64,000 nucleotides of DNA, taken from Sphagnum compactum. Its lineage: Eukaryota. Of this stretch, positions 11,065 to 64,000 are shown in pieces. A program made the position numbers and the translations under genes. Position 1 is the first letter of the stretch. Every line of letters begins with the position of its first letter. The notes under the pieces are model-generated. The model ran no database searches. It saw nothing but the letters and a program-made list of their open reading frames with translations, and had not been told where the DNA came from. The stretch spans positions 11,832,213-11,896,212 of the forward strand of contig OZ234493.1 in assembly GCA_965153455.1 (NCBI GenBank), in the 5' to 3' direction.

Positions 11065-12065
11065 AATGGATGAGAGCAATAATGAAAATATGGAATGGAT
11101 GAAAATGGAGTGGATGAAAAAATGATTAAAATGTGGAAGGGACAAAAATGGACTAATTTTTTTAAAAGATGAAAATAAGGAAGGGACAAAATAAATAAAT
11201 AAAATGTGAAAAGGATAAAAATGGATTAATCAATTTTTAAAACGAAATGGTAAAGGGGATGAAAATTGGAGTGGATGAAAAAGGATGAAAATGTGGAATT
11301 AAATGAAAAGTGGAGTGGATAAAAAAATGAAGAATTTGTGAAGAGGGATGAAATTGGAGCATACGAAAAACATGAAAATGTGTAAAAGGAGAAAACTGGA
11401 GTGAATGAAAAAATGATGAAAACATGTGAAAGGAGGAAAGTGAAGTGCATGGAGAAATGATGAAAGCTTAGAAGGGACAAAAGTGAAGTGGATGAAAAAG
11501 ATGAAAGCATGGAAGTTGTGGGGTTGATGGAAAAAAGGAAAAAATGGAATGGATGAAAGAACGATGAAAATGGTGGGGTGAAAAAAGATGAAAATGTGGA
11601 AAGGACAAGAGTGGAGTAGATGAAAAAATGATGAAAATTGGGGAAATGGACAAAAGTGGAGTACAATTGGATGAAAAATATGAAAATGGTGGGGAAGGGA
11701 CAAATGTGGAATGGGTGAGAAAAGGATGAAAACAAATGTGGAAAGGATGACATGAGGAAAATGGAGTGAATGAAAAAATGATGAAAAATGTGGAAAGGAA
11801 CAATTTAAGTGGAGTGCATTAAAAAAAAATGAAAATGGGGAAAGGACAAAAATGGAGTGGGTGAAAAAGGGATGAAAACCAATGTGGAAATGTGATGATG
11901 AAATGGAATGGATGAACAAATAAAAGTGGAGTGGGTGAAAAAAAGATGAAAATTGTGAAAAATGATGAAAATGGTTGGGAAGGGACAAAGGTGGAATGGG
12001 GTGAAAAGAAATTTAAAACCAATGTGGAAGGGATGTTGAGGAAATTGGAATGGATGAAAAAAGAA
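11065..12065 (+). repeat. About 1-kb purine-rich degenerate minisatellite (unit roughly 40-45 bp)
   Basis: Recurring gaaaatgtggaagggacaaaa(g)tggagtggatgaaaaaatgat; the F/H/S-rich minus-strand ORFs are artefacts of this array. Confidence 0.85.
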
Positions 12066-24965: not shown

Positions 24966-25083
24966 GATTTTTTCTGTGTGAGTCTTTAGGATTTGGTTTT
25001 GTTTGGTAGGGATTGTTTTGATGTTGTAGTCGTCTGTCGGAAGCAAGGAGAGAACAGAAGAGGATGAGGATGAGGATGCTGGA

Positions 25084-28000
25084 ATGCAGGAAAGGGTGAT
25101 TGGAAGACAGATGCAAGACGATGTGGATGTGAGGTGGTTTGGTGAAGAGGGAAGAGGAGGGAGCAGAGTAGTAGGCTGGAAGTTGCTACCACCATCATCA
25201 TCGTTGCCAGATGAATGCCAGTCGCTGCTACCCATGAACCCTTCTTCCCCTTTTCCCTCCGCAAACCCTAGCCCAGGGGTGATAGGGGAGCCGTCGAACC
25301 GTCATCATGGCTCTGAAAGTAAGGGCCAGTTTTTGTTACAGCTATTGCAAAGAGGAGGAGGAGGAGGAGGAGGAGGAGGAAGAGAAAGCATTTCCAATGG
25401 TGAGAGAACTGCTGCTGGTGCTGGTGAGAAAGAAAGATTGCCCCCTCAAGACTACCCACATGTGATTGGAAGTGATGATTTATCAAGATGGCAGCTGCAG
25501 GATCCTGCTGTGGCTGCCTTGGGTTGTAGCCAAATTTTCCAGCAAGCTGCACCTTCTGCAGCAGCAGCAGGTGATGCCTCCTCCCAGCTTTCAGAACCAA
25601 ACCAACTGTTCATGTCTTCTCAGTGTGGAGGAGGAGGAGGAGGAGGATGGGCTCCACAGCAGCAGCAGCAACATCAGCATCATTTCTTCCCTCCATCTTT
25701 TGATCCACGTGGGTATCCAAGCCAGCACCCACAATTGTTGCATCAGCACCAGCAGCAGCTGTCTCCACCCATGTTCCCTCGATATCCTCTGCCCTTACAA
25801 GCAGTAGAGGGACATCAAAGGATGATGGAGAGCCGGATGTTGGATCCTCCGAGACAATTGGATTCTCCATGGCTACCACCGCCACAGCTAAGGCAGAGTG
25901 CTACTGATAGCATGATGAACCTGAGAGCATGGGGGAGTCTTATACCAACAAATGCTCCAAAGACTCCACTTCCACCGCCACCCCCACAACCACCAGAACC
26001 TGTGCCCCCTCCTCAACAATTCTATGGAAATGGTGCTGAGTTGTTGCAGCTTCTTCTTGGCCAAGCACCACAGAATCCAGCAGCTCAAATTTCTCCTACA
26101 AAGAGTGCAAGCATTGTTGATACAGGCCATGGCACTGAGCTTATGCTGAATGCTTCAACTGTGGTATTGCCAGGAGGAATGCAGAATCAGAAGCCTGCTG
26201 GCACAATTGTTCATGGTCCAATTGGCCCTCCTCCAAAGCGAACTGAGTCCTTACACTCCACAAGAACACCTCCAAGTCCCAAAGACCTCCTTGGAAGGTT
26301 TTGGGCGGTGCCGCCAAATGCTGGCTCACCACCAGACAATTCTCTTCCCACCTCAAAATTGAACCTTGCACCAAATTGGGAAGATCCTGTCAGAAATTCA
26401 ATCCATGCAGGAACTTCAAGTAAAGAGAGTATGAATCATGCCTTTGAGGTTTTGCAACCTCTGCAGCAGCAGCAACAACATCCACAGAGAAACTTTGAAT
26501 TTTCTGGTGACAAAATGAGATCTGGAAAGTCAAATCTCATGGGGCTTTTGGGTGAATCAGCCATTGAATTTCCTTCAGAGTTTGATTTTGTTAGCCCTGG
26601 AGCCAAAGGCTTCCAGGAAAGTTTAAAATCTCATGAAGTGGGGAGAGAGGGAGTGCACCCAGGTGGTGGGTTTCCAGATGGGTCAACCCCAATCGGATCA
26701 GGGCTCAAGATCCAAACTTCCAGACCTTCAGATGACAGAGGTATATTTCTTAGATGAAATTCCCAGTACAATGCATCACTGGTAGGTGATTCATTCTTTT
26801 GACTCTTTTTCTTTCTACAAGCCTTGGTATCCATCCCTGACTTTTAGCTGGAGTTTGCAAGTTTTACTGAGATCTTTCACTTGGTCTTGCATTGATGCTG
26901 GATCTTATGCACTGGGATGTTGTCAGTACTGCTAACTATGTTCCTCTTCCATGCAATGTAATTGTAGATTCTCTGATGGGTGTGTTCTTGTCTGCATTCC
27001 AGGGCACTATCAACGGCACCAACTTAGCAACATACTTGCTACAGGAAGAGTAGGAGAAGAGGATCTTAATCAGAGTGGATCAGTTAGCCCAGTTTCTACA
27101 GGAGAAACAAGTGCTGTTGTTGGTGCTGGTGAATCTTTGAGGTTCCCAGCCATGGAGAGTGAAAAGGGTGCTTGTCTTCTGAGAAATGGAGGAAGAGTTG
27201 CCGGTAGATGTAATGGCTCTGGGAGAGGAGAGATTGGTCGAAAGGCTGGACAGATCCCTGGTGGCCAATGGGTTGCAGTGAATGAGAATCAGCAGGAGAG
27301 GGATGGCGAGACAGTTGGTGGGATGACTGGGTGTCATATAGAGTCCATGGAGTTTACAGCTCTAGTAGGGAGAGCAGACTTGTTGATTTTGAGTCGTCAA
27401 GTTGTGGCTAACTCTTTGGCAAATAAACCATCACAGAATTCACCACCACCTGGAAAAGAGGATTCTTCAACTGCAACAAGGGAGCTTGTTGCTGGGGGAA
27501 AGCTTAGAGAGGATTTGAAGCGGCGCAGAGGGATACAAGAATGGCGAATGAAACAGCCATCATCACAGCAGAGCTCTCCCTCTCCAACCAAGCAATTCAG
27601 CTCCCCAGAATCCATTGCCTCAGCCACTAAGCCATGTGAATCTGAGGATGAAGTCCAGTCAGCTGGAGTTCTCCCACTCGCATTGCAGGTAAAAATTCCT
27701 CACCCTGTCTCGTGCTTATTACACAATGTCAAATCACACTGTTGCACAATTGTGTGTGAGCCATTATTATTGCCGCAAGCTCACACTCTGCAAACAGTCC
27801 TCAACATTCACAATATTCTTCTCTTCAAAACATGCTCCAAACATGTTCTAGCCGACCAAAGAGGCTCATTTGTGATAAAGGTGACGGTCTGACACTTTGT
27901 GAGCAACTCTCCTAGGGTTATGACTGCACTCCTTGTTGTGTTACCATCAAGTTTCTGTTGTGGAGATTCCTCTGTGATTTCATAGATATGGGTGATCTGT

Positions 28001-30681: not shown

Positions 30682-33600
30682 GTCAAAAGACAGGGTTGGA
30701 TTGGACAAGGGATGACTGTAGCTTGAGCAAATCTCAATCCTCATATGTGAATGGGCCCCTGGAGCTAGAGCTCAAGATGGTGTTCCTGTTAATTGGGGCT
30801 GGTGTCAATTTTGGGTGGTTGCGGTGTTTGGGAGAGAAGAGTGAACATGGAAGGTCTTGTGGTCCAGATTGCAGATTCCAACTTTTGGGTTGTGGGGATG
30901 GGCCTCATTCCAGCAGTTCTCTGTACATAGGACTGGGGCCAAGTTTTCCTATTTGACTTCTGGGCTGTCATTATGATGTAAAGCTGGTATCATTGTGAGA
31001 TTTCGAAGTGACACTTCTTGTGGGGAACCATTCATCCTTTCCAGTAACAGACCAAGTTAGCTGCTGCAGATATTGGGTTTTGTCAATTGCAAGGTGAGGA
31101 ATACAAAGGAGGACAGGTCAACACCTTAACAACAGAAGCATATCAAATCGTGTGATTAAATGAAATCACTGTTTTTATTTATGGATTTTATGAAGGTTAT
31201 GGGCTGCTTTTCTGTTGAGGAAGTTGAAGCAGCCAGTGTATAAAGAACAAGAAGCATTTAATCTCTCTTGTTGGCACTGGGGGAAAAATGCATGAATCTG
31301 TGGAATTGATTAGCAACAGTCAGCAATTTACCTCAAAACAATGGCCAACCAGTTGACTGAGTGGATAGGTGGATGTACGAATTTTGAGAATACTCTCAGT
31401 CCATGTTGTGCAGGTAGACGCCGTTACAAAAACTTGAAGTGAAACTTTGGTTTTATAGTATTTGTATTTGAATCCAACTGGAAAATGAACCTACTACAAC
31501 GGTTCTAAATTTGGTTTTGGTTGGGTACTGTTAATCTTACTTTGTTTACATCAGTGAAATCAAGCTTTGTCATTTCGTACCTTTTTCAGGAGAAATGGGA
31601 AATAATGAGCTTTGATGCATGAGAGGGAAAGAAACGTAACAAAAGAGTATGACAACACTGCATGAAGTGAGTTCTGAAATTGCAGATTTTACACTTGAAG
31701 CTAGTTTCTCAGAGATTGGTTTTCTGGGGCTGAGAAGTGCTTTTGAGATGTGTTGCAAGAGTTGGTGGGTGTCAAAATTAGTGTATGTATTTGGAGCTTT
31801 GTCTTGCGATTCTGTCTTTGACCATGTTTCTAGTGATTGGTACCAAAGATTACCTTTCTTCTAGACCTCAATCACTATCGAAGCGGTGTCGAGAACAGTA
31901 GTGTCACATGAACGTATAGTTGCCTTGGAATACAACATTTTCTTTTACATAACAAATTTGCTTGAATTGTGAGGAGTGTATGGAAAACAAGGTCAAATTG
32001 TGAAGATGTTTTTTTGCGAGGATGATTTATATTTTGGAACAAGCTTCTCCTTGCACAAAGGTTAGTGTTTAACATAACCATGTTTAATGAGAGGTGAACA
32101 ATCACTTGAAATAAGCACTTGGCTACTCACATTGAGTAGTTCATGCATCAAGCAAGAACATTTTGTGCTCTTTTTGATGTGTCATTCATGTTTGAAAATA
32201 GTGGGAATGTTTAATATTTGATTGTTGTGCATCAAATGTGGGAGGCATGGATACTGCGATAATTCATGTTTAAAAAAAAAAAAAAATTAAACCAAATGAA
32301 AAACAACCCATTTCAATAATTTGTCAATTTGACCAACCAATTAGTTAATTTGGACAAATCATTTTGAACATGGTTAATTTGATTGACGGTCTTTTTTTAC
32401 TTTACTAGTCAAATGGTGGATCTTTTGATTGCTCAAATCAAACAATGAAGATTGGGCAATGAAAGAAAAGGTTTACAATTTGTAATTATTATTTTCTTTT
32501 CAATTGATGGCTAAAACATCATTTATTTTATTTACAAATAATTCATATTTTTTAGTCAACCCTATGGTCTACCTACCTATTACACACCTATGTATATATA
32601 TATATATATCATTAGTAACACGATATTTGAATTTAAGGTGCTTTCATGATCTATAATCATTGGGGTCAATCTATTTAACATATCAACTAGTGGATTGGAT
32701 GAAATATGGACCCTGCCTATTTTAGAAAAGCTTGTCTCTTCCTTCATGCATTAAAGGATTGAAAAACTACCAAGCTCACATAAGGCCACAAAAATGGTTG
32801 CATGAGAATAACATCATATAGAACACCCACGAAATCCTCAAGGTCACTACCACAAAGCAACAACAAAAAAGATAACAATCCCCCTTCCTTATGGGTCGTA
32901 AACTAACACACATTTCAATCATGTTTTCAAAAAAATCACAAGTGTAATAAGAAGATGCCTTAATGTCTTGAATGATTACCAAATTGGAGTGTTTGATCTC
33001 ATGATATATTGCAAAGCAAACCATAACATAATAGCAATGTCCTAAAACTTTAGTGTTAGAGAAGAAAAAAGACGTTGCCCAAACACTAAACCAAAACATC
33101 TTGTCCAAAAATCAAGTCTTATCATCCAAGTCCCCTCATTCACATTTAGCCCACCCCTTCATGAAATCTCCAATTCAAATAGACCATAAAACTAAATGAT
33201 GTGTCCATTTGTATTTCTTACACCCCTATCAATATTCCTTGTATATATATGTATATATAATTTTATAATTATTTAAATACATTATCCACATAATAGGGTA
33301 CCATTTTATTTTGAAGAACTTTATAATTTTTACTCTTCACAAAATATATTGCATGTTGAATGTTTTTGCACAACATTTGGTGATATTTGAAAGTGACCAA
33401 ACACAACAGTTTCTCATTTAATAAAATAAAAATTGTTACAAAAAAAAGGTCAATTCAAAATTCATTGTGTAAATTCAACTAGTACTTAATAAAAAAGAGA
33501 AATTTTATTATTAATAAAAATAGAAGGTTGAAATGTGAGGGATGGGAATGTTATTAGTTGTGGCAAAAGTTGGAATGTTAATTTGAGATGCATTAAAATT

Positions 33601-33800
33601 CCATATAATTTTCTTCAAGTGCAATTAGTAAATTTTGTTGGAATTTTTTAAAAATAAAATCATTAACGTCAACTAACTCTATTTAACACATAAATTTATG
33701 TTATACTTTTTTTTTAAAAAGTCACTTGTTGCTATAATTTTTAAAACATGTCCCTGTGCCCCGAAAGGCCTTTTGACATTCAATTTTGACCATAATATAT

Positions 33801-34447
33801 TGTTGTGATGTGTAGTGTCGTGACGTTTGGTGTCGTAAGGGTGTAAATCCATAATAAATTCTATTGAACAAAAAGACTAAAAGTAGTCAAAGGTAGAAAC
33901 TAATCAACCAAAAAGAGATGCACACACATATATATACAATGCACAAGAAGAGGCTAAGATGAAATTCTCATGTATTAAATTGAAAAGAAGGGAAGAAAAC
34001 GTAATGTATGTAAACGGTGGTTGTGTAATAGCCGCCGTGAGCATCTAAAAATCCTGTTTAACTATGGAGGAAACTCTCCTTGACAAAGGAATTCTAAAAA
34101 AACTTACAAGAGAAGGGAAGAGCTTGGCCTTTTATACAACCGTCAACAAGTTGAAACCCTAAACAAGCCATAACCCTAAAACACTTAAGAACGTACATTA
34201 ACCCTAAAGGCATGATTGGTATTCCCGTAACCGGCCGTCATGTACGAGGCCATGCATACGGGCATGATAGTTGTCGTGGCGTGTAGTGTTGTGACGTTCA
34301 ATGTCATAAGGGTGTAAATCCATAGTAAACTCTATTGAACAAAAAGACTAAAACCAGTCAAAAGGTAGAAACTAATCAACCAAAAAGATATGCACGCACA
34401 TATATATACAATGCACAAGAGGAGGCTGAGATGAAATTCTCATGTAT
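33801..34447 (-). repeat. Terminal repeat block A-B-A (A about 175 bp in two direct copies, B about 295 bp)
   Basis: 33801-33975 and 34272-34447 are near-identical; B is the reverse complement of 61377-61690. Confidence 0.9.
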
Positions 34448-35503
34448 CCCCCCCCATACCTGAGCCGGGAAAAGCGTGGCATGGTCTGAGTAGAAATCAA
34501 GGTGTTGCAGGAGAACATGATGAATAGTACCAAATGCCGACGAGAACTTGAGTGAGCTCCGACTTGAAGCAGAATAGATGGTATCGACCATTACAATTAT
34601 TGCAAAGTAGCATCTGATCAGCATCCTCTGTCCTCTGACATACCTGACATGGATAGTCAAGTGGAGGAATCCAAGATGACGTGATGATGGTAGGATCTAA
34701 GTTCGGCAGGTGGCAGGGTGCATAGTTTTTGGAGTGATCCCGAATTGTGCGTCCGTCAGCTCCTTGCAACTCCAACACACTTGAAAGCCTAATCGCCTTA
34801 ATCATCAAGATAATGCGACTAGAAGAAGTGTCTAGAGTATCATTAGGTTGCCGCTGAAAATACACAAAGTCACCAACATCAAATTGTCTCACTTTAGGTT
34901 TATAACTGCCACCTCATGTGTGTGCATACCGTAAAGTGTCTCGATGCTGTGCAATGGACAAGTTTTCCATGGCCATGGGCATAACCCTCCAAAATAGAGC
35001 AACCTTATCTGTGATGACCCTAGCCCAAGTGGCTAGGGAGTCCAAGTCCACAACCTGGTCCATTTAAACAACAATGGAAGAGGGTGGAATGAGATGTCTC
35101 CCAAAAAGTAGAAAGTAAGAAACGAAATGAGACAAAGAAGCGTGTTTGGACATCCCATAACCCATGGCGATGTAAGGTAGGGCCAGGTCCCAATCCTCTT
35201 TGTTCCCAGTGAGGCAAATCTTTCGAAAACCCTTCTTGCATGTCTGAACCATCCTCTCTGCAAGGCCATCAGCTTAGGGATGATCCTTTGAAATTCGACG
35301 ATGGTCAATGAGAGCATGATCAAGTAGGTCTTGGAATTTTCCTCTGAATTCTGATCCTTGATTAGTAAGGCACTCAGCACAAGCCCCAAACCTACTTAGG
35401 ACTTGTTGTAAGAAAGCCTGGTTGGCGATGTGTGATGACTTGTCCGGTACGCAACAAGCTTGACCCACTTTGAAAAATGCTCAATCATAATCATGATGTA
35501 GAC
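33801..35503 (-). mobile_element. 3' part of a decayed Ty3/Gypsy-type retroelement: integrase + PHD finger, G-tract, then repeats A-B-A
   Basis: rve core MIEHFSKW...RFGACAECLTNQGSEF...HP*ADGLAERMVQT; then YKPKVRQFDVGDFVY and PHD CQVC...LLCNNC...YHLFC...WYYSSC (stop at 34497). C8 tract at 34448-34455. Repeat A at 34272-34447 and 33801-33975, with B at 33976-34269 between them. Confidence 0.88.
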
Positions 35504-35559
35504 CTTTGAAGTTTTCAATTAAATGAGAATATTAATCATTTTGTTGTTGTTGTTTTGTT

Positions 35560-39502: not shown

Positions 39503-39856
39503 TTGCAGTGCCGTAAAAAAAACACACAAATCAGTCAGTAGCTAGCGGTGTGTAGTTCTCGAGTGCGTTGCGCTCGTCGCCTGCGCAGCGATGGTGGATA
39601 GAGATTGCGCTCGCTCGCGCAATCGATCTCGATCTCCACAAGAGTCGAGGAAACCCTAAAAGACGATTTTGGCACACTGCTTTGTGCGCGTGTGTCGTAG
39701 CAGCTATCATCTGTCGATGGATGACAATCGTTCGTCCTTTGGTTCTCATCCATCGGAAGGAATCGCACCGATGTGATTTTTTAAATCGTCAAATTTCGGG
39801 ATTTTTTTTTTGGGGGAATTTTTTTCCCTCAATATTTGGACTTTAGTTTGGTAGCA

Positions 39857-40000
39857 TTTTAATAACTATTTTTTAAAAAATAATTATTTTAATAACTATT
39901 TTTTTAAAAATGTTTATTTTAATAACTATTTTTTAAAAAATGTTTATTTTAATAACTATTTTTTAAAAAATGTTTATTTTAATAACTATTTTAAAAAATA
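39857..40000 (+). repeat. AT-rich tandem repeat, about 5 x 30 bp
   Basis: ttttaataactattttttaaaaaatgttta repeated head to tail. Confidence 0.85.
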
Positions 40001-43000
40001 TTTATGACTAGTTTTGAAAATGAAATTTGTTTGATAAACATACAAACAATTAGCTTCAATTTCGTTAAATCTTATTAAAATGAGATTCTTAAAAAAATCG
40101 ATTTGAAAGATTATGCAAGATTTGATTAAAATAAAAACATGTCCATTTAAAAATAAATTAAAAATTTAATACAATATTCGTTTTTGAGATATAAATGTTT
40201 TAAAGTTGATTTGATGTTATTTCAAAAACTTCAATAAGGCTTATTTGCTGAAGATTTAATAATATAAATCATAATATAAATAATTTTTAATTGATTAGTT
40301 AGTTTGTATTGTTGTTGCCTTTTATGTTATATTTGTTATTGCCTTAAGATAGTAGACATGCATATATGATTTTAGGTTTTTCCAAGCATGTATGGGGGGC
40401 AAACACAACTAGTTATGTGTATAAACATGAGTTCTTAAAATTATGAATTCAATATTGAACCATCATGATACATCAACCATAACATATTACACCCATAGGT
40501 GCCCTCGCAACGAGCAATTGTAAGCTTGTTAAGGATGCTTTAATTTGAACGAAATAACATCCTTTATGATTTTTCTTGAGGTGTAAGGTATGCTCTTACA
40601 TATGTGATGTTTTTGGACATGTGTTTTCTATCAACCTAGAACTAGATGCACAAGTATCTAGTTGTATGGATGGCTCGTCAAAAGGTGTGTGCTTTTATGT
40701 TCTATCAACTTGGAACTAATTGCACAAATAGCTAGTTATATGGATGGCTCATTAGGAAATGTGTGTTTTTATGTATAAGGGAAGGTCACAAGTGGAGAGA
40801 GTTCCCTAATTTGATGCCTTGGAGTTGAGGGTGGTAGCCAAAGGACTTTCAAGTTTCAATATGAGAGAGCTTCTTTTGCATAAAGAAACTAGGTTGATTT
40901 TTTTTATCTTTCCAACATTTCCTTTTGCATAAAATTGAAAGCCTACTTGCAAGGCTAATGTGTGATTTTTTCTTGTTGTAATCCATGTGTGTCAACTTTG
41001 TTCTCAATGCAATTTCTATGGTTTTTAAAAATTATTTTTGGTGTTATTCACAAGAATGCATTAGATGCCAATTGCAATTGGCACTTTGGATTTTAATGCC
41101 TTGACACTAATATCAATTAATTGTTACTATTTTGTGGACCTCACACAAACCCAATATTAACCAACATGGGAGATGGTGTGATTCTATCGGTTAGATTGCC
41201 TTCAAGATCATATTTGAGATAACAATTTTAGAGATTTCTTCGCTTTTATGTTGCTTGGGCAACCAACATTTTGAACATCTATTAGTTTTTTTTCTAGTTG
41301 CATTTATCGATGTGTTTTGCCTTCTTTTAATTATGTGATTGGATACATTTATTTCAACATTGATTGCCTAGCAAGAAAGGCAAATGGACATAAAGTTGAA
41401 GCTTTTCATACAAGTTTTTGAAGTGGTAATTTTTCAGTGAAAAGATGATAATGGAGGCAAACGAGGCAAAGGAAGTAATTATTTTCAATTTTTTACCCTG
41501 AAGTCATTAGGGGGTGCAAACATAGTAAAAGGAGCCTTAATGTGTATGGACAATGCTTAAAACTGGATTTTTAAATTTTAAAAAAATCATAATGGGAGCA
41601 CAATAAATTGGACTATCAATTTTTTTTGGAATAATCTCCACTATTTGCAAAGTTTCAATGTTTAAAATTTGATGCAAATTGATGATGTTTCAAGAGTCTT
41701 TTTGCAAGTTCAAAGCATACGTGGACTATATATATATATATATAGTTCAAATGTGTTTTTTCTCTATATCAAGTGTGCACCATTCCTTTTCAAAATTGGA
41801 GATGATATTAGTACTGATAATTAAAGAGAAAAAAAAACTTGAAATTAATGATTTTTTCCCTTTTACAACGCATTTAAATTCCTTTGGCCCAAATCTGCTT
41901 TTGGCCTTAATAATTATGAAATTTGATGATGTCTTTACTAAAAAGGTTATTTATTTTATATGGTAAAGAACATGAATGCATAATATATATGATATAGGAC
42001 CAAGATTTAATAACATATATATATATTTAGCACACAATTGAAAATTGTGTATGAAAAAATGCAAATATAAAATAATAGACCAACACATGAATGCCACATG
42101 TCAAATGCAATCCTTGGAAAAAGATTTAACCTTGGCACCCTTTGCTCTTTTTATTATGTTACACTCTTAGCTAATATAGTGAACTCAAAATTGTTCTTCT
42201 AATTTCAATGACAATTGGTGGGGCACTACTCATGTCTTTAGGGTGCCATAGTGGTGTGCAAGGTGGTAATTTTAGGAAGGTGGATTCTAATTCCTTTTAG
42301 ATTTCAAAAGAATGAGCACACATGAAAGATGGAATTTGTACATGGTTGGCAAGTTATTTTTTGGATTTGTGCATTTGATATTATGAATCACATATAAATG
42401 AATTTTATAATTATATTTTAAGTTTTTACTTGTGTCACGTACATGATAACAATAATGGTTAACTATATTTTCACTATTACATTATTAATAGGATACATTA
42501 TCAAGGATCATTATCAAGCTTAACATTCTTAACCAATCAATTAGTTTGAAATATTTGGTTTATATACAATGTCCATTTGCATTAATTTTAGTTGTTTTTT
42601 CTCTTTGGTTGGAGTTCTCTAATTGTTTTCTGCTTAGGAAAACAATCATTTGAACAAAAAAATGGAAAAAAAGGTTTTCAAATGAAAAAAAGAGGAAAGA
42701 AAAACCTCTCTTGAAGGAAATTCACACAAGGAGATCAATTACATAAGTTTGAAAAATATAGGCGGAATGGAAGTTTACACTTGTACTCCAATATGCAATA
42801 GAATGGGGACGCAACATTAGTTACATCCACATATGAGCAATGTAATAATGTGAATTCATTATTCATTGCCATGAATGTGTTTGTGTTTTAAATCCTTGCT
42901 AATCCCCATGTCCAACTTACTTGCACACCATAATATCGACTCTATGAAATCCCATAGAAGCCATTGGTACATTATTACAAAATGTGGGTGCAGTTCACTA

Positions 43001-51011: not shown

Positions 51012-52510
51012 CCAGTGTTGTGCCAGTTATATTTGAACTTGGTAAAGAACCGCCGGTTCCTTTTCTCACGGTTTCATTCATAATCAGGGAACCACCCACC
51101 CCCGGTCTGCCTGTTTTGGAAACCCTTTAAAAAACCAGCGGTTCTTTGGGGACGGTTTTTTTCCCTCTTTTTGGGGGGAGGGGGGGGGGGGAATTTAGAG
51201 AACCTGTGGTTGTATAATAATATCATAACCGAATTTTTTTCTATTTTTGAATTGCTCTTATGAGTTCCTAAGAACCGTCTTGATAACCACCGGGGGTCTT
51301 CCCAGTGGTGGGCATGCAGGGCAGTCGTTAGTAGATCCTTTTTAGGATTCATTGCATGGTTCTCAAAACATGTTTAAAAATCAACTAACCGCCTCAAGCA
51401 CCCAACGTTGCCGGTTCTGCAGCGGTTCTTGGATGAGAACCGTTGGTTCTTTTGAGGAGGTTGCAAACAATGGGCCAGCTGTTGCTTGGATGAGAACCGT
51501 TGGTTCTTTTGAGGGGGTTGCAAACAATGGGCCAGCTGTTGCTTGGATGAGAACCGTTGGTTCTTTTGAGGGGGTTGCAAACAATGGGCCAGCTGTTGCT
51601 TGGATGAGAACCGTTGGTTCTTTTGAGGGGGTTGCAAACAATGGGGGACTGTCGGTTCTTTGATTCGGATGTTTCCAGAGAACTGGAACCGGAGGTTCTC
51701 TGCTTCCGAACTTTCAGCGTTGGAACCGGAGGTTCTCTAATTCTGAGCTATCGGAAAATCTGAGTCCGAAATATTTTTAAAAAACTGGAACTTGTGGTAC
51801 TCTGAGTCTGGGCCAGGGTCAGGAAAACAAAACCCAGAACCGGCAGTTCTCTGGTTGTGAACTATTATTTCTGAAAGAAAAAAGCCAGAACAACAGATGG
51901 TTCTTTATAAATTGAAATAACCGCAGAACACCGGTCGGGTCTCTCTGCTCACGTTTCCGATAACCTGCTGTTAGAGAACCTCCGGTTCCGGTTCCACACA
52001 TGCAATCAAACCTTGAATCTGGTTGTTCTCGGTTCTGGTGTTCCAGTTCTAAAACTCAGACCCAATTCCAGTTTGGTTTTCACTAACCGGGACCAGTGGG
52101 TTTAACATGCCAAACTGGGTAGTAGTCGCCCAAGACTGGTCGACTATTGAGTTTTGACCTGGTTATCAGGCAGGTAGGTTATCAATCTGAAAATATTAGG
52201 AAAAAATTAATCACAAAAAACACCTATATATATATCTATATAATTAATTAATAAAGAAAATCCTATTAACCAGCTAATAACTGGCAGGATAACCATTGAT
52301 TATCACCTGGTTATTTGATTAACCCACCCTTTATGGATAACTGGTGGTTATGAGCCCAAATATATCAGTAACCGAATTGGCGCCCAAGCCTTTTTGGCCA
52401 TTGATTACTTGATTACGTAACCGGGAAACCCCCCCCCGGGGCAAATTATTGTATTAAAATACCCGGAGGTTATATTTTTGGGGCAAAATTAAATAACCGG
52501 CCAGCACTGG
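51012..52510. mobile_element. Non-autonomous TIR element(s), hAT-like ends, rich in AACC/GGTT motifs
   Basis: Left end CCAGTGTTGTGCCAGTTAT; right end reverse complement CCAGTGCTGGCCGGTTAT; an additional end-like CAAGACTGG near 52131-52139; dense gaaccgg/ggttct motifs; no TSD seen. Confidence 0.55.
51429..51645 (+). repeat. 57-bp tandem repeat, about 3.8 near-identical copies
   Basis: ttggatgagaaccgttggttcttttgagggggttgcaaacaatgggccagctgttgc starts at 51429, 51486, 51543 and 51600. Confidence 0.95.
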
Positions 52511-52924
52511 TTTTAAACCGGAATCCAGTCGCAGAGATACAGACAGCTAGACACACAGTGCAGTGTTGGCACGCGCGCGCGGAGTTGTATTGAATTGGAA
52601 GAAACTACTGCAACAACAACGACAACAAGCAGCGGTGCCATGGGCGATCGACGGCGTGATCGAGAGAAAAAGTGGGAGAGATGATGATGGGATCCCAACA
52701 AGAGAGTGAGCAAAAAGAGAGAATGGGTTGTTGAGAGATCACGCACCAGAATGTTGGTGAATGTGATAAGATTGAAAAGAATTGGCCAGTTGCTTAGTTT
52801 TTTCTCCTTGAAACAACAGCAGCACGTAGTGCGGTTGTTCCTTGTCCTGGATTGCGAGTAGAGATGCAGTAAGGGATACAATAGCTAGCAGGAGTGAAGA
52901 AGAACAAGAACAAGAAGGTGGGCA

Positions 52925-55900
52925 ATGGAGGAGGAGGAGCAGCAGCAGCTGCTGCAAGAGCGTGATGGTGGCTTCCGAGTCCAGCTGAACTCGAGAGATG
53001 ACGAGACTAGCTATAGTAGCAGCAGAAGATCCAGCTTGAGTGAGCTTATGGTGAGTTCCAGGAATTCTTGTGGGAGTGGAGAATATCATCATGGCTTGAA
53101 CACTAAAACTGCAGCTCGCAGCATGGAGGGTGATCGGCGCCGCCCACCTGCTGCACGTCGCTGCTTGAGTGAAGAATATGAAATGAAGCGGCATGTCGAT
53201 CAAGCTGTTGAGATCTTCCCGGCTCATGATAAGCTCAGCCGCCTTCTCGAGAATCCCACTCCGCAGAGGATGGGAAAGTTGTCCACCAAGACCAAGATTT
53301 CTTACCCATACAAGAAGAATTGGCTCAGCAATAATCGGCCTGTGCAGAAACAGGCTGCACAAATTCGATCCGCTGCTGCAAAAGAGGGATGGATATCCAG
53401 GTGGAATGCAGCTCCGTGTGTGCGCAGAAGCAGCAGCAGCAGCAGCAGACGGGACTTGCCCATGTCCACAACGTCCATTGCTTGGCACAGGCATAAGCAG
53501 TTGGGAGAGAAGGAGTTGCCACACAGCAGCAGCCGCGCCACCACAGTTGCAGGTTCAATGCCCAGTCTCTTCAACAAGAAAGAAGCTTGCGCTCTTGCAC
53601 CCGAAGAAGCAAATGCTCTGAGCTCGTCATCATCATCCTATGGACTCTCCCTCAGGTCTAAGTACTCTCGGCACGCAGCTGATGCAGCGCATGGAGATGC
53701 AGCAAACACCAGACAACGGGAGCGCAGGAGCGAGCGCGGGATTGACGACTCGGAGCAGCGTCGCCGGGGGGCTAACGATAGTAGTTTCTTCTGCGACAGC
53801 AGCAGCAGCAGCAGCAGCAGGAGCCAGGACGACGACTTCTCCACCAAATGGGAGCAAGAGATCGCAGCTCTACAAGCCATGATTGCAAGAACTTCAACCC
53901 TTCTTGCACGCGGGTCCAACTCCAAACCAACAACAGGGGATGGAGATCGACAGCAACTGAGGATATCGGGCCGGGGCTTCAGCAAGGAGACGGCGACGTC
54001 GGAGCTGATGATGGCTGGTACCAAAGTCGGGGATCAAGAGGAGCCAGAGAACAACCTGAGCTCTTTCTCCAGGAGGTTGCAGCAGCAGGGTTCTGCTGCT
54101 GCTGCTGATGACCAGTCGAGCTGCATCCTCCTCGCAAGCAGCACACTGCCAAAACAGGGACCGGATGCAACAGGAGAAGAAACTGAGATCAGCAGTCGTG
54201 ATCAGATAGAATTCTGGGAATCGGAGCCAAGCACGCCGTCGTCTTCAGATCGTCAGTACTTCAGCCCCGCTGGATCCCAGCAGGAAATTGAGGAGGTTGA
54301 GGTTTGGGATGATGATGATGAGCATGAGCTGCACTTGGAGGACGAGTCACTGGCAGCTCCTTGCAGCAAAGAAGATGAAGAAGACGATGACAAGAGCTTC
54401 TCTTCCATTCAGACTGTAAGAACCTTGGAAACCAGTGGCAGTAGTAGTGCAAGCTCCAACGATTTTCCTGCTGAGCGCTTCAATCTCAGATCCACAAACT
54501 GCATGCAGCTGAACTACAGAAACTCATGCAAGGAGGAGGAGGATACAGCAGTTGTTGATGAAGCTGATTATGATTACGATCATGATCATGATCTTGATGA
54601 TGCTGCAGTTCCAGGAGACTGGGAAGTTGTAGAGATGAGTAGAGATGTAGATCACAGAATAACAAGAAGTGCTCACAGCAGCTGCAGATACTACAACTCC
54701 AGGTACTTGGAGCCTGAAGATTTGCAACACTACTCAAACACATCAAGAACCACGAATGATTCAGATGATGACTTGTCAATGGAGGAGGAGCATGATGAGC
54801 ACAACCAGCATTGGCATCTCAGAGACAAACACATCAATCTTATGAATCCAATGTACTGCTTGCAGTTGGCAGAGAGTTTTGGTGTTCCTGCCAGTAGTAC
54901 TCAACCAACCACCAGAGATTTTGCAACTAAAGAGCTTGCAGAAACAGCAGAAGCAGCAGCCAGGTTCAAGTGGGAAGAAGAAGAAGAAGAAGCTCATGAC
55001 AGACTCAAGCTTGATGATGATGATTACAATATGGTGGTAATAAGAAGAACAGCCAATGTCAAGATTCATAACTCCAGTACTGCAACTGTCAATTCTTCTG
55101 CAACTAATCTTTGTGTACAACAGCAGCAACCACAGGCACAACATTCCATTTCCATGTTTGAATCTGCATGGGCTGAGTCCTGCAGTTCCATGGCTCAGGA
55201 TGATGATATATCATTTGCTACTCCCTCCAACACCTCCAGCTTCCATGGCAACAAATCTTCCTCAGAGAACTCAAAACCCGCCCAGCAGCATTCTTCTCAA
55301 ACCGATTGCAACAATAGGCTAACCAATACTACTACTACTACCATGACGATAAGCTTGAATGGGTCAAGCTCAATCTCTTCACAACTATACATAAAGGGCT
55401 GTTTGGATGAAGCTGGCAGCAACAGTTGCAAGGAGGAGAAAGGCTCTCCAACAAACTCCTGCAGCAGCAGCAGCAGCAGCTCCACTTCACCAATCTGTGA
55501 GCATGAATTCCCATGTATGATGTGTGAGTTAGCCAACAATGTTCATGCTGCAGCAACAACAAAATGCTGCTGCAACAATCTCAAGTTTTTCACACCCCAG
55601 CAGCAGCAGCAGCAGCTCCACCTTGGAGAATGCTCAGCAGCAGAAGAGACCTTGGACCACCAAAGTTGCAATCATAGTGACATCATCAAAAAGCAAATGT
55701 GGCATCTCGGAGACCATGTGCCCTTGTACCCTGGTTGGCACCAAACTCCTCCACAACAACAGCAACATCATTGTACAACACCGCAAAACTTTTTTGGTTC
55801 TGAACACCCAACAACACTCCATGGAGCACCCAGTGTTGTGCTCAGGAAGATGCTGATGAGTCCGAATTATTACTACTCTGATTCTGGTGGCGCAATTTTC

Positions 55901-56202
55901 ATCACCACACACGACTCTCAAATAAAATTCTTGGTGGTTAGTTTGCTTCTTTGTCCCTACATTAACAACTCCCTTCTTACACTGACTTGCATCTGTCTGT
56001 CTGTCTATCAGTCATCATGATGATTCCCTTCCTGTGTATGATTTTTGTTGTTGAATGGGTGCAGAAAACAGTTTGTAAGTTATTCAAGCACACATTAACA
56101 AGGTGTAGAGTACTGCAGTGCTGGGATTGTTCACCAGCATGCAACAAAGACAACAAAAACAACAATTTTGCAGGCCAGCAGCTTGAGGCATTGAGCTCAT
56201 GA
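52925..56202 (+). CDS. Hypothetical protein of about 1050 aa, mostly low-complexity, with a compact Cys/His-containing C-terminus
   Basis: 1031-codon ORF rich in poly-S/Q/E/D. Probable phase-0 intron 55937-56064 (GTTAGT...GCAG) joins ...SQIKFLV to KTVCKLFKHTLTRCRVLQCWDCSPAC...*. Family not recognised. Confidence 0.75.
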
Positions 56203-60842: not shown

Positions 60843-61376
60843 CATCTGATTATCTTATTTCTATGAATAATAGATTATTTTATTTTATTTTATCTTATCT
60901 GTTTCTTTTTTTTCTAATTCCTTTCCTCTTTTAAATTTTCAAAAAAAATTGTTTAAAGTTGTGACCCTCTTCCTAATATTATGAAATCTCTATTTATATT
61001 TTTACATATGTTCATTTTTGGTAAAAGAAAAAAGAAATGATAATATTTCAGCCATTGATCTAATATTCCTTTCTTCTCATTTTGGGTCTCTTTCAGATGT
61101 CAATAAATTCTTTTTGGGGATTATTTTGATTACATTTCTTAATCCAATTACATATTTTATAAGTGAAAATGTTTTTTTAAATCCATAATAACGACTTGAT
61201 GTAAGATCAAATGATAATATTCTAGAATAACGATTACAAAAAACTATTTTATTTCCAACACAATGCAAGCAAAATGGGGTGTTTGTTTGTAATTTTGGAC
61301 ATATAAGGTTATTTCACATGTTGAAAAATTGGATAGATTTTTTTTTTGGAAAAATTATCAAATAATGGAATAATAT

Positions 61377-64000
61377 TATCATGCCCATATGCATGGCCTC
61401 ATACATGACAGCTGGTTACGGGCATGCCAATCATGCCTTTAGGGTTAATGTATGTTCTTAAGTTACTGTATGTTATTAGGTGTTTTAAGGTTATGGCTTG
61501 TTTAAAGTTTTAGCTTATTGATGGCTATATAAAAGGCCAAGCTCTTCCCTTCTCTTGTTAGTTTTTTTAGAATTCCTTTATTATGAAGAGTTTTTTCCAT
61601 AGTTAGACTGGATTTCTAGATGCTCACGGCAGCTATTACACAGTCACCATTTACATACACTACGTTTTCTTTCCTTCTTTTCAATTTAATTCTAGAAAAA
61701 CTGTTCTTTGTCATTTAATGTTGAAAACGACAGATTTTTCGTGGCTTTGAGTTTCTTGGGTTCCTTTTGCTTGTTGGTTTCTTATGTTCTTGAGTTGTTG
61801 CTACCTCTTCTTTCTACTCTTGTATTGTAGTTACAACAGGAACAACAACCATAACTAGCAACAACGTAAATGAAGGAGAATGGACACTGGAAAAGCTCAC
61901 GGCAACTACTACTGCAAGCTTTTACAAGCCTAAGCTTCCGATCTCACTCATGCCTACTAAGTACCCGCCACACAACTATGCACTTATCTACATCTAGATT
62001 AATTCCTCCTCTTCTTCTTCTTTTGTGCTTTAACTTCTTTGTTGCTCTAGTTCCATCTCTATCGGCTCTCTGCACAAATGATCGAAAGAACAAACGGTCG
62101 TTGAAGAAGCGAATTTTTTTTTAAAAAAAAAATTCTTATCTTCTGCATGCCATCGTTACAAAGCTCGCGGACACGGATTGATCTATAACAGCGCGTACGC
62201 AGATTGTTCTACAGCGCCGCGGACATAGATTGTTTTACAGCACCGCCAACGCGAATTGCTTTGCAACACCACGGACGCAGATCACTTTGCAACTTCGTCA
62301 CAGTCGCCATCCCTTCCATTTTGGTCCGGTCCGGTCCATTCCGTTCGACATTTGTCGCCATTTCATCCAACGCCCGTCCCAGTTCCGTCCGACGTGTATC
62401 GTCGTTTCGTCTGACATCCATCCCGATTCTGTTCGACATTTGTCACCATTCTGTCTGATGTCCCTCCTAGTTCCATCCGACGTTCGTCCCAGTTTCGTCC
62501 GACGTCCGTCCAATTCTGTCCAACGTTCGTCACAGTTTTGTCAACGTCCATCCGTTCAATTCTGTCTGTTTGACCCCTTTCATCCACCGATGTCCATCCA
62601 TAGACGTCCGTTCGTCCAGTTATATCTATCTGGCCCTTTCCATCCACCAACGTCCGTCCAGAAATGTCCGTCCACTAACGTTCGTCCGTCACCGTTCATC
62701 CTTGTCGACACACCATATTCTTCCAATCGTATGTACTACGTACATACGTATCCGATACCGTATTCTTCAAACCGTATGTTGTGTTAGAATTTTGTAGCTA
62801 GTGCTTTGTATTGCTACAAAATTTTGGGGCATGTCTGCCCCTTTACTTGCCATGGTATGAAATTGACCTTCCTAATGACCACCTGTACTTGTATATTCTG
62901 ATGTGTTTTGAGCTTATAATCTTCAGGTTGCAGATACTAATTTAGAGGTGAAGATGGTGAAATTGCGAATTCCTGACCCAGGAATGGATCAGAGCAGCAT
63001 AACATCATGTGGGCAAGACAGTTGGCAAGTACTGCACCCACTCAGCCAGAACCAAGGTATCAATTACAAAATAACACACAATCATTTGAGTCGATTTCTT
63101 TGAACTCGCGATCTTCACGACAATACCATCAAGCGTTTATAGCACCACCATCATTTAGTACAAGTCCTACTAGGAATTCAGGTTCAAGTTACACTACGTC
63201 AACGATACATCAAAGTCCATTTGGAGGGTTTAATCAGTGGGGTACGCCTACTGCCGCACCAACTCTCACACCATCACTGTATATTCCGCTCCAAATCGTT
63301 ACCTCTACACCCATATACACCATGGAGGTCAGTAGTTCCTCTGGGAGAATTGAGAGTTTAGCGGAAGGCCAAGTACCATTTCTTTGAGGGAGTTCAAGGC
63401 AACTTTCTAAACTGTGGTTTGTGAATTGGAGCTCAAGTATGGCGTTAATTACACCGAGGCGTTCGCATTCAAACAACTGGCCCGTTATGTGCACTATGAG
63501 GATTGGATGTCTACGAGCAACATTTTTCGAGGATTTTTGGCGTCACCCAAATCCCCAATTCAACTTATGCCACAGCCATCACCACCCCCTCTCAAGCTGC
63601 ACTACAAGCTGCCATTGCACATCATGGGACTATGCCCAATAATCCAGATCCAGTACCTACTTCAGTAAACCTTCCTCCTCAATAACTCATTGATGCTACC
63701 GCAAACATTCCTCCCGCCATCAATGCACCAGCTTTTACTGATCGAGTGGGGGAATCCTTTCGAATTTTTGAGCTGGAATTTTTTGTTAAAAGTTTTGAAA
63801 AAATTCTGCAGCTCGCCACCATCTCTCGGCAAAAGGATGAAACCCTCAAGATGTTCTACAGGAGGCTTCTCAAGCTCAAAGAGAATATTCAGAGCATCAC
63901 AGACCTAGAAGCTACCCATCGGTATCTTCGTTCATTGGAAGGTACTCCGACACTCCATGCGCAAGTTTTGCAACGAATTTTTTTTAGAATTTGGAAACTC
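61377..64000 (+). mobile_element. 5' part of a second copy of the same retroelement family: repeat B, long leader with CGTC repeats, decayed gag
   Basis: 61377-61690 is B (TATCATGCCC...CAATTTAAT) with TATA-like CTATATAAAAGG at about 61525. Frameshifted gag-like protein from about 62983 (...ELKYGVNYTEAFAFKQLARYV...KILQLATISRQKDETLKMFYRRLLKLKE...). Runs off the right edge. Confidence 0.8.
62300..62710 (+). repeat. CGTC/TCCG-rich degenerate array inside the retroelement leader
   Basis: Repeated cgtcc, gttcgtc and gacgtcc motifs; CpG-rich against a CpG-poor background. Confidence 0.7.

Follow-up and report, generated by a model that had tools for sequence, protein, structure and literature searches.

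A Gypsy-type retrotransposon family of bryophytes with a DDE integrase and split direct repeats

Two element ends in one Sphagnum contig

Here we analyze 64,000 nt of the moss Sphagnum compactum (assembly GCA_965153455.1, contig OZ234493.1, positions 11,832,213 to 11,896,212 of the forward strand), and we refer to this whole stretch as the window. It holds one, possibly two, decayed copies of an abundant bryophyte retrotransposon family with a DDE integrase, in which two sequence units, A and B, stand where a pair of long terminal repeats (LTRs) would be expected. Copy 1, on the minus strand, is merely a 1.7-kb 3′ fragment of the element; direct reading gives the order of an open reading frame (ORF) ending in a PHD finger, a G-run, A, a 2-nt spacer, B, A, and an AT-rich flank. 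Copy 2, on the plus strand, is a 5′ end. The features are as follows, where L025 is one of the metagenome loci described below.

35036..35509, minus strand: remnant of the integrase core (rve), by tblastn with the L025 rve ORF
34500..34913, minus strand: integrase C-terminal region, PHD finger (Pfam PHD), and stop codon
34448..34460, minus strand: G-run GGTATGGGGGGGG, polypurine-type, adjoining A (direct reading); putative plus-strand primer site
34272..34447, minus strand: inner A, ending ...ACA; putative upstream part of U3 of the LTR as it would exist during reverse transcription
34270..34271, minus strand: 2-nt spacer AC (family GC) separating the terminal CA of A from the initial TG of B; center of a palindrome resembling an attachment (att) site
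33976..34269, minus strand: 3′ copy of B, starting TA (TG in the family)
33801..33975, minus strand: outer A, ending ...ACA at 33801, where the element has its 3′ end
33797..33800, minus strand: ATAT flank adjoining outer A; possible 4-bp target-site duplication (TSD), with its partner at 61373-61376
61373..61376, plus strand: ATAT flank adjoining the 5′ B of copy 2
61377..61690, plus strand: 5′ copy of B, with no A ahead of it (BLASTN)
61688..61703, plus strand: primer-binding-site (PBS) position AATTCTAGAAAAACTG, complementary to 61559-61574 over 16 nt with one G.U pair
61704..63410, plus strand: long 1.7-kb leader, with three 44-bp tandem units at 62338-62511
63411..64000, plus strand: start of gag, interrupted by the window end (tblastn, BLASTN)

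The L025 rve ORF matches copy 1 at 35477-35058 (79%, E 1e-72) and 35509-35426, and query residues before about 29 are missing, the copy being cut off there. Pfam finds rve weakly on a 68-aa ORF of copy 1, and finds PHD above the cut-off (E 4.8e-8, residues 89-133). On the same strand, upstream of the rve remnant, tblastn and BLAST report no similarity to reverse transcriptase (RT), DNA methyltransferase (DNMT), or gag. Inner and outer A align in two segments, at 87% and 95% likeness, and the 3′ B has a TATAAAA at 34136-34130 followed by a predicted transcript start and self-primer, AGTTTTTTTAGAATT, at 34104-34090. A preliminary description of this DNA had given the 3′ end as integrase-PHD, A, AC, B, and A, with the boundaries listed above, and both the minus-strand reading and the repeat search bear this out. 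Two details have to be corrected: both B copies in the window start with TA where the family has TG, and the AC spacer is a decayed GC.

Copy 2 matches the B of copy 1 at 84% over 314 nt, and the match ends at ...CAATTTAAT. Ahead of the 5′ side of this B lies unrelated DNA, and past it come TCTAGAAAAACTG and the long leader. BLASTN and direct reading thus agree with the earlier claim that the copy at 61377 starts with B only, stops matching at the B/A boundary, and has no TGG there. Its TATA is at 61528, and the predicted transcript start and self-primer are at 61559-61574. Gag is recognized because the L025 gag ORF matches 63812-63988 (tblastn, 76%, E 2e-24) and 63300-64000 matches locus L017 at 83% (BLASTN). 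The 44-bp units of the leader generate a 201-aa low-complexity ORF (62182-62784).

Possibly copies 1 and 2 belong to one insertion that a single inversion, about 26-27 kb long, has broken in two, moving flank and the 5′ part of the element. What suggests one element is that the flank 3′ of copy 1 and the flank 5′ of copy 2 are both ATAT, that the two B copies are mutually nearest (among 46 B copies, the nearest relative of the copy 2 B is the window 3′ B, at 0.891), that the contents are complementary (5′ end to gag in copy 2, rve to 3′ end in copy 1), and that the orientations are opposite. One inversion break would be in the integrase gene near 35510, and the other would lie beyond 64000. 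When copy 2 is compared with the window by BLASTN, B is the sole part that it has in common with copy 1, and the internal regions are not comparable.

The arrangement of repeats across the family

We placed Logan contigs from four sequencing runs of three organisms (X1, X6, X7, X8) on positions 33500-35000 at a likeness of at least 80%. Summed word depth is in the thousands in the bins of the element versus 18-51 in the flank, and therefore the family is abundant, although contig word depth is not taken as copy number. The loose ends listed, where contigs continue into sequences unrelated to one another (agreement 0.41-0.48, median length 113-255), fall at exactly three positions. The first is 33801, where outer A ends, and at least 12, 36, and 28 contigs (X7, X8, and X6) enter unrelated flank there. 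At 34267, the start of B, at least 16, 19, and 25 contigs do so (X1, X7, and X8); these flanks begin with CA on the plus strand, and therefore B begins with TG. At 34271/34272, at least 20+22 contigs (X8) and 28+27 contigs (X6) stop, which is the end of A as placed on the inner copy. In addition, at least 11 X7 contigs that enter B from the 3′ side carry the leader sequence of copy 2, and four diverged contigs (X1 record 2, X7 record 19, X8 records 26 and 27; 27-37 differences each) span the joint from B to outer A with at least 31 nt per side.

At 70-86% identity, 33 longer proteins with rve and PHD are related to the integrase-PHD piece, and the sources named for some of them include Sphagnum magellanicum and the liverwort Calypogeia fissa. 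An alignment of 13 relatives retrieved 587 confirmed metagenome stretches, and the best 80 of these 587 are our loci L001-L080 (836 kb). Scoring the loci by BLAST with A, B, leader, and integrase parts gives 81 chains after integrase-PHD (I):

I-A-B-A: 35 of 81, 27 of them distinct by 3′ flank
I-A-B-A with an insert of about 820 bp in B: 1 of 81 (L045)
I-A-B, interrupted by the contig end: 1 of 81 (L049)
I-A, then unrelated flank: 41 of 81 (39 plain, 33 distinct by 3′ flank; one cut inside A; two with an insert in A)
I only: 3 of 81

Thus A-NN-B-A, where NN is a 2-nt spacer, follows integrase-PHD in 36 of the 81 chains. As a particular case, L066:2304-5516 has two partial copies in tandem, about 1 kb apart, each ending I-A-B-A.

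The 5′ ends are uniform. In all ten that we examined (L025, L032, L036, L039, L043, L049, L075, L056, L080, and copy 2 of the window), the order is flank|TGTCATGCC...B...|leader, and in 0 of 10 is there an A, or a full B+A or A+B repeat. The possibility that most full-length copies carry complete LTRs at both ends, which had been named as fatal to the split-repeat reading, is thus not what the family looks like. An integrated LTR consisting of A+B at both ends is likewise rejected, given that A is missing from all ten 5′ ends, together with the lack of any heterogeneous flank at the start of A among the loose ends listed. Also rejected is an arrangement like that of terminal-repeat retrotransposons in miniature, with A as a mini-LTR and B as internal sequence, because B is the 5′ terminal unit ahead of leader and gag, and the flanks start outside B and A.

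The B...A-B-A architecture is real and family-wide. The preliminary description had been concerned that its model joined two different partial copies, and had argued from the coincident breakpoints against a random deletion. The same plan recurs across the family, with the same junctions in the contigs of four runs and in 80 independent loci, which goes well beyond chance. The normal integrated form is TSD|TG-B-leader-gag-protease (PR)-DNMT-RT-RNase H (RH)-integrase (IN, DDE)-PHD-G-run-A-GC-B-A-CA|TSD, and a shorter form stops after the first A.

Termini, joints, and target-site duplications

The G-run directly adjoins A, with the same G-run|ATACATGAGA junction in essentially every listed locus, so that the plus-strand primer would be expected at this position. 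A ends with ...CGTCACGACA, and B starts with TGTCATG. Of 35 sequence-distinct chains, 32 have a spacer of exactly 2 nt between inner A and B (GC 16, AC 8, GT 5, AT 2, GA 1), and in the other 3 it is decayed. The inner joint is typically GACAGCTGTC, a perfect 10-bp palindrome, which is intact in 12 of the 35. The spacer variants AC and GT would be expected from C>T decay at CAG/CTG. The joint between B and outer A is ...TTCAAT|ATACATG in most copies, and varies by -2 to +2 nt. When we asked if this variation tracks subfamilies, both joint types were found within one B-end subtype; AT slippage explains that equally well.

Comparing the 4-nt flanks at the two ends of the same element, we find 4/4 agreement for L036 (CATG), L075 (CCAA), and the window pair (ATAT), 3/4 for L032 and L043, 1/4 for L039, and 0/4 for L025. 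Flanks of different elements agree 4/4 in 0 of 42 pairs, and 3/4 in 1 of 42. TSDs of 4 bp are thus seen in five of seven pairs at 3/4 or better. Ends that read TG...CA, with 4-bp duplications outside 5′ B and the last A, are characteristic of a DDE integrase that acts on those two ends, in keeping with the earlier assignment to a DDE-integrase lineage.

Within and between 26 distinct A-B-A elements, the window included, the inner and outer A units have these identities:

Inner versus outer A, same element: 0.931
Inner versus inner A, different elements: 0.893
Outer versus outer A, different elements: 0.884
Inner versus outer A, different elements: 0.888

At every alignment column the majority base of inner A is that of outer A as well (26 elements). 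When the inner and outer labels are swapped in a permutation test, 18 of 300 trials reach the statistic observed. By this comparison, the two A units are not two old lineages; both are copied from one template per transposition, as the members of an LTR pair are. It is because they do not evolve as separate lineages that we say that both are remade in each cycle. B is closest to its partner in the same element in L032 (0.964), in L043 (0.895), and in the window (0.891). In L025 it is not: the partner there is at 0.893, and another element is at 0.916.

These results bear on another reading, that this is an ordinary Gypsy element whose LTR is B, with A a local duplicate of internal or flanking DNA, or else a one-off partial tandem duplication of an A+B LTR. 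The direct repeat of 5′ B and 3′ B is one that an LTR finder would accept, and the window has a single 3′ end. However, A-NN-B-A is repeated in 36 of the 81 chains and in contigs of three organisms, the flanks and TSDs start past outer A and not past B, the G-run adjoins A and not B, and all majority bases are common to inner and outer A. We give this alternative very little credence.

Coding capacity

L025 has ORFs with the Pfam families DNA_methylase (E 1.4e-9), RVT_1, rve, and PHD, and tblastn places gag, DNMT, RT, rve, and PHD in the same order and with constant spacing across loci. The DNMT is a Dnmt3-like cytosine-5 DNA methyltransferase placed between protease and RT (L025:3439-4443, and 21 other loci); this region lies outside the truncated window copies. 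It is present in 22 of the 25 loci that reach far enough upstream, and missing in L032, L066, and L068, loci that carry deletions or are nested. Its best solved relatives are DNMT3A/3B/3C (E 1e-7). Two proteins show the domains in open frames: P0034 (1214 aa) is a gag-protease-DNMT protein with an aspartyl protease, and P0003 (929 aa) has RVT_1, RT_RNaseH, Integrase_H2C2, rve, and PHD in one protein. The order of the element polyprotein is gag-PR-Dnmt3-like DNMT-RT-RH-IN(DDE)-PHD. The PHD finger stands at the integrase C-terminus, where a chromodomain would stand, and its probable role is to bring the integrase to chromatin. For methylation by the Dnmt3-like domain, the cDNA is a possible substrate.

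Could the split direct repeats, then, belong to a tyrosine-recombinase element of the DIRS order, into which rve-PHD came as a foreign nested insertion? The repeats themselves would suggest it. But the colinear domains at constant spacing, the single RT-RH-IN-PHD protein P0003, and the TG...CA ends with 4-bp TSDs speak against an insertion, and no tyrosine recombinase (Phage_integrase, PF00589) is found in Pfam scans of 10 L025 ORFs, P0034, P0003, and P0037, or in the precomputed Pfam lists of the protein relatives. The preliminary description had raised this alternative too; with rve-PHD an integral part of the polyprotein, it deserves hardly any credence at all.

More distant relatives vary in their content. 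P0037 has all four Pfam families (DNMT, RT, IN, and PHD), with the DNMT between RNase H and integrase, in contrast with its position between PR and RT in the moss family. P0038-P0040, found by similarity to the DNMT ORF at about 40% identity, have no DNMT family listed. A 10.4-kb contig in a metagenome-assembled genome of a Minisyncoccia bacterium (L081) has an intact 1974-aa RT-RH-IN-PHD polyprotein of eukaryotic type and a 1049-aa upstream ORF; the polyprotein is 39% identical to the DNMT ORF with no DNMT Pfam family listed, and both element ends are missing from the contig, which is probably eukaryotic DNA within a bacterial bin. A scan of viral contigs found no intact distant relative. Finally, P0043 of Closterium sp. 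NIES-54 has DNA_methylase with RVT_2 (Copia-type), and P0044, which has rve and RVT_2, resembles the DNMT ORF; these two may represent another, independent capture of a DNMT by a retrotransposon in a streptophyte alga.

Putative landmarks of reverse transcription

The ten aligned 5′ ends have in B a conserved TATA(A/G)(A/G)A box. At 31-34 nt after this box begins AGTTTTTCTAGAATT, and its exact complement, AATTCTAGAAAAACT, is found immediately past B. The complementary run, allowing G.U pairs, is 13-16 nt in 7 of the 10 ends, and 10, 9, and 6 nt in three decayed ends, and the minimum-energy fold pairs both sites. Past B, no TGG, the mark of a tRNA PBS, is conserved among the ten, judged without comparison to an explicit tRNA set. 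The primer of Tf1 is 11 nt. The layout matches Tf1-type self-priming, which uses no tRNA, with the transcript start predicted at AGTTTTTCTAGA in B. A possibly tRNA-independent replication route had been proposed for this element, and the 13-16 nt of self-complementarity at the position of a Tf1-type self-primer agree with that proposal, as far as a route can be read from sequence.

With a primer of 12 nt, U5 would end with ...TTCAAT, which is exactly the point where A joins in the commonest B|A joint. We infer that the LTR made by reverse transcription is A+GC+B, because the G-run, the TATA box, and the self-primer sit where they do; the B|A joint would then be the U5|U3 junction, and the sites of the integrase would be inside the LTR.

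A proposed replication route

Our proposal, which we consider somewhat probable, is that the LTR of reverse transcription is A+B, and that circular permutation, with opening at the palindrome, yields the integrated copy. Transcription would start in B, about 32 nt past the TATA box, and give an RNA whose first 12-15 nt would fold back on the complementary site just past B and prime the minus strand, as in Tf1 and with no tRNA, and the G-run would prime the plus strand. The resulting linear cDNA, A+B...A+B, would have tips without TG and CA. Instead, att-like inverted ends (TGTCRTG... on both sides) would meet at the palindrome inside each LTR, and it is this ...ACA-GC-TGT... palindrome, and not the cDNA ends, that the integrase would cut. 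Opening one palindrome of a circle with tandem LTRs (2-LTR-type) would give B-internal-A-GC-B-A, with the B|A joint as the circle junction. Cutting a 1-LTR circle, or both LTRs of the linear cDNA, would give B-internal-A, a dead end. The form B-internal-A-GC-B-A must be made regularly, because no other product retains a downstream B that could serve to restore the promoter half of B.

If the integrase cut the palindromes of both LTRs in the linear A+B...A+B cDNA and inserted B-internal-A as the regular product, the A-B-A ends would be secondary, for instance from tandem dimers or recombination. That 41 of the 81 chains stop after the first A, and that two elements ending in this way, L036 and L075, have perfect 4-bp TSDs, would be expected from such a linear route. 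On the other hand, B-internal-A has no downstream B to restore the promoter half of B and so cannot found a family, and secondary A-B-A ends would not account for inner and outer A being homogenised within elements, for an inner joint of exactly 2 nt in 32 of 35 chains, or for the TSD-like flanks outside outer A in L032, L043, and the window pair. We regard the linear route as quite unlikely.

A route that does without end-joining, like that of DIRS elements, is a close rival of the circle-opening model, although in itself we think it unlikely. Here the RNA would end in outer A, the B-A joint would serve as the splint or template that unites the cDNA ends, as proposed for PAT-like and Ngaro elements, and the DDE integrase would open and insert the product at the palindrome. 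In favor of this route, the repeats follow the A-coding-B-A-B plan given for DIRS-order elements in the accessible text of PMC5890265, and the frequency of the downstream B-A form (36 of the 81 chains) is explained. A is T-rich with a TGTATATATATGTG stretch, which in our own reading could be terminator-like. The variation of 1-2 nt at the B|A joint between copies is unexpected for a templated joint unless there is slippage.

For the circle-opening model, the circular intermediate has a precedent in retroviral integrases, which reportedly cleave 2-LTR circles at their palindromic junction (PMC1180852 and PMC1905944). As there, a DDE integrase would be cutting an internal palindrome of two att ends (CA..TG) in the moss family. 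The difference is that the retroviral palindrome is the U5|U3 circle junction and its use a side pathway, whereas the palindrome of the moss family would lie inside the LTR made by reverse transcription and be the main route.

Several observations weigh against circle opening. The alternative product of cutting a 2-LTR circle, with 5′ B-A-GC-B-leader, is found in 0 of the 10 5′ ends, and there is no solo B-A unit in the 836 kb of loci. The variation of 1-2 nt at the B|A joint fits end-joining, and fits AT slippage too. Two of the seven full-length pairs, L025 and L039, have no TSD, and every sampled DNA copy is decayed. The I-A class comes from short-read metagenome contigs and may partly be an assembly shortcut through the repeated A; given the divergence of 2-11% between A copies, we take the class to be mostly real. 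In retroviruses, 2-LTR circles are rare dead ends, and a main route through them would be unusual. Transcription start, self-priming, and circle-cutting are all predictions from sequence.

More tentatively, we suggest that there is a DDE-integrase lineage extending from mosses to charophytes that would normally integrate a circular tandem-LTR cDNA by way of an att palindrome inside the LTR, after tRNA-independent self-priming. We would call this broader proposal possible, and no more than that.

Relation to known elements

The pol order of the moss family is that of Ty3/gypsy elements (PR-RT-RNase H-integrase, with an H2C2 zinc finger and a DDE (rve) core), and so are the TG...CA termini, the polypurine tract, and the TSD, whose 4 bp belong to the 4-6 bp type. 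The family is unlike them in that it lacks two complete identical LTRs, its 3′ ends being A-NN-B-A or A alone, and in that a self-complementary site stands where a tRNA PBS (TGG...) is expected.

PAT-like, Ngaro, and TOC1 elements are DIRS-order elements with split direct repeats that encode a tyrosine recombinase. The moss family has the same topology, in which a single half-repeat stands 5′ and B1-A2-B2 stands 3′. To our knowledge, DIRS-order elements make no TSD. The moss family differs from them by its DDE integrase, its TG...CA ends, its 4-bp TSDs, and the lack of any tyrosine recombinase in the scans described above. Split direct repeats have so far been read as a hallmark of tyrosine-recombinase retroelements; here they occur with a DDE integrase, TSDs, and a palindromic att joint.

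Self-priming has been predicted for 12% of plant elements and for the Tcn1 clade, which includes mosses (Neumann et al. 2019, PMC6317226, in its accessible part). Like Tf1/sushi and Tcn1 elements, the moss family has no tRNA-type PBS and a predicted transcript start complementary to a site past U5. Those elements have two full LTRs and a chromodomain, whereas the moss family has split repeats and a PHD finger.

The closest description that we found is that of KnitGypsy-Dnmt3 from Klebsormidium nitens (de Mendoza et al. 2018, Nat Commun 9:1341, PMC5890265), a Gypsy element with a Dnmt3 domain in Pol, whose repeats are 'the same as that of a DIRS retrotransposon', a plan written there as A-coding-B-A-B (legends of Fig. 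1e/4c). As far as the accessible text goes, both it and the moss family combine Gypsy domains, a Dnmt3-type DNMT in the polyprotein, and repeats of DIRS type. The hosts differ, a charophyte alga in one case and a bryophyte in the other, and the two are likened by description and not by sequence; among the matches to the DNMT ORF no Klebsormidium protein is named. For KnitGypsy-Dnmt3, that text mentions no PHD finger, TSDs, palindromic joint, or self-primer, all of which the moss family has, the self-primer as a prediction, and the words 'PHD', 'moss', and 'Sphagnum' are absent from it. In the literature searched, the name KnitGypsy-Dnmt3 is found in no other paper, and we found no published description of the moss family, its palindrome, TSDs, or predicted self-primer; subscription journals, Repbase reports, and supplements may hold more. 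We therefore regard the moss family as a new member, from bryophytes, of a kind that has one earlier mention, in a green alga.

The moss family extends retrotransposon-borne DNMTs, also known from Symbiodinium, from a charophyte alga to land plants and, among them, bryophytes. Annotation is affected too: an LTR finder would take B...B for the LTR pair and overlook where the element really ends. If the proposed route is true, its replication cycle would be halfway between those of LTR retrotransposons and DIRS elements, and split direct repeats would be a signature of circle-derived integration, whatever the integrating enzyme. As the family is abundant, with dozens of independent copies, the long-standing question of linear versus circular integrating cDNA is directly testable.

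Other features of the window

Elsewhere in the window there are three tandem units with a 57-bp spacing and 99% identity (51428-51645), an AT-rich 15-bp array with palindromic arms (39826-40005), and a purine-rich degenerate array (11075-11968). Three long open frames resemble host genes: 52898-56017 on the plus strand (1040 aa), 25030-26754 on the plus strand (575 aa), and 350-1228 on the minus strand (293 aa), the last of which is coiled-coil-like.

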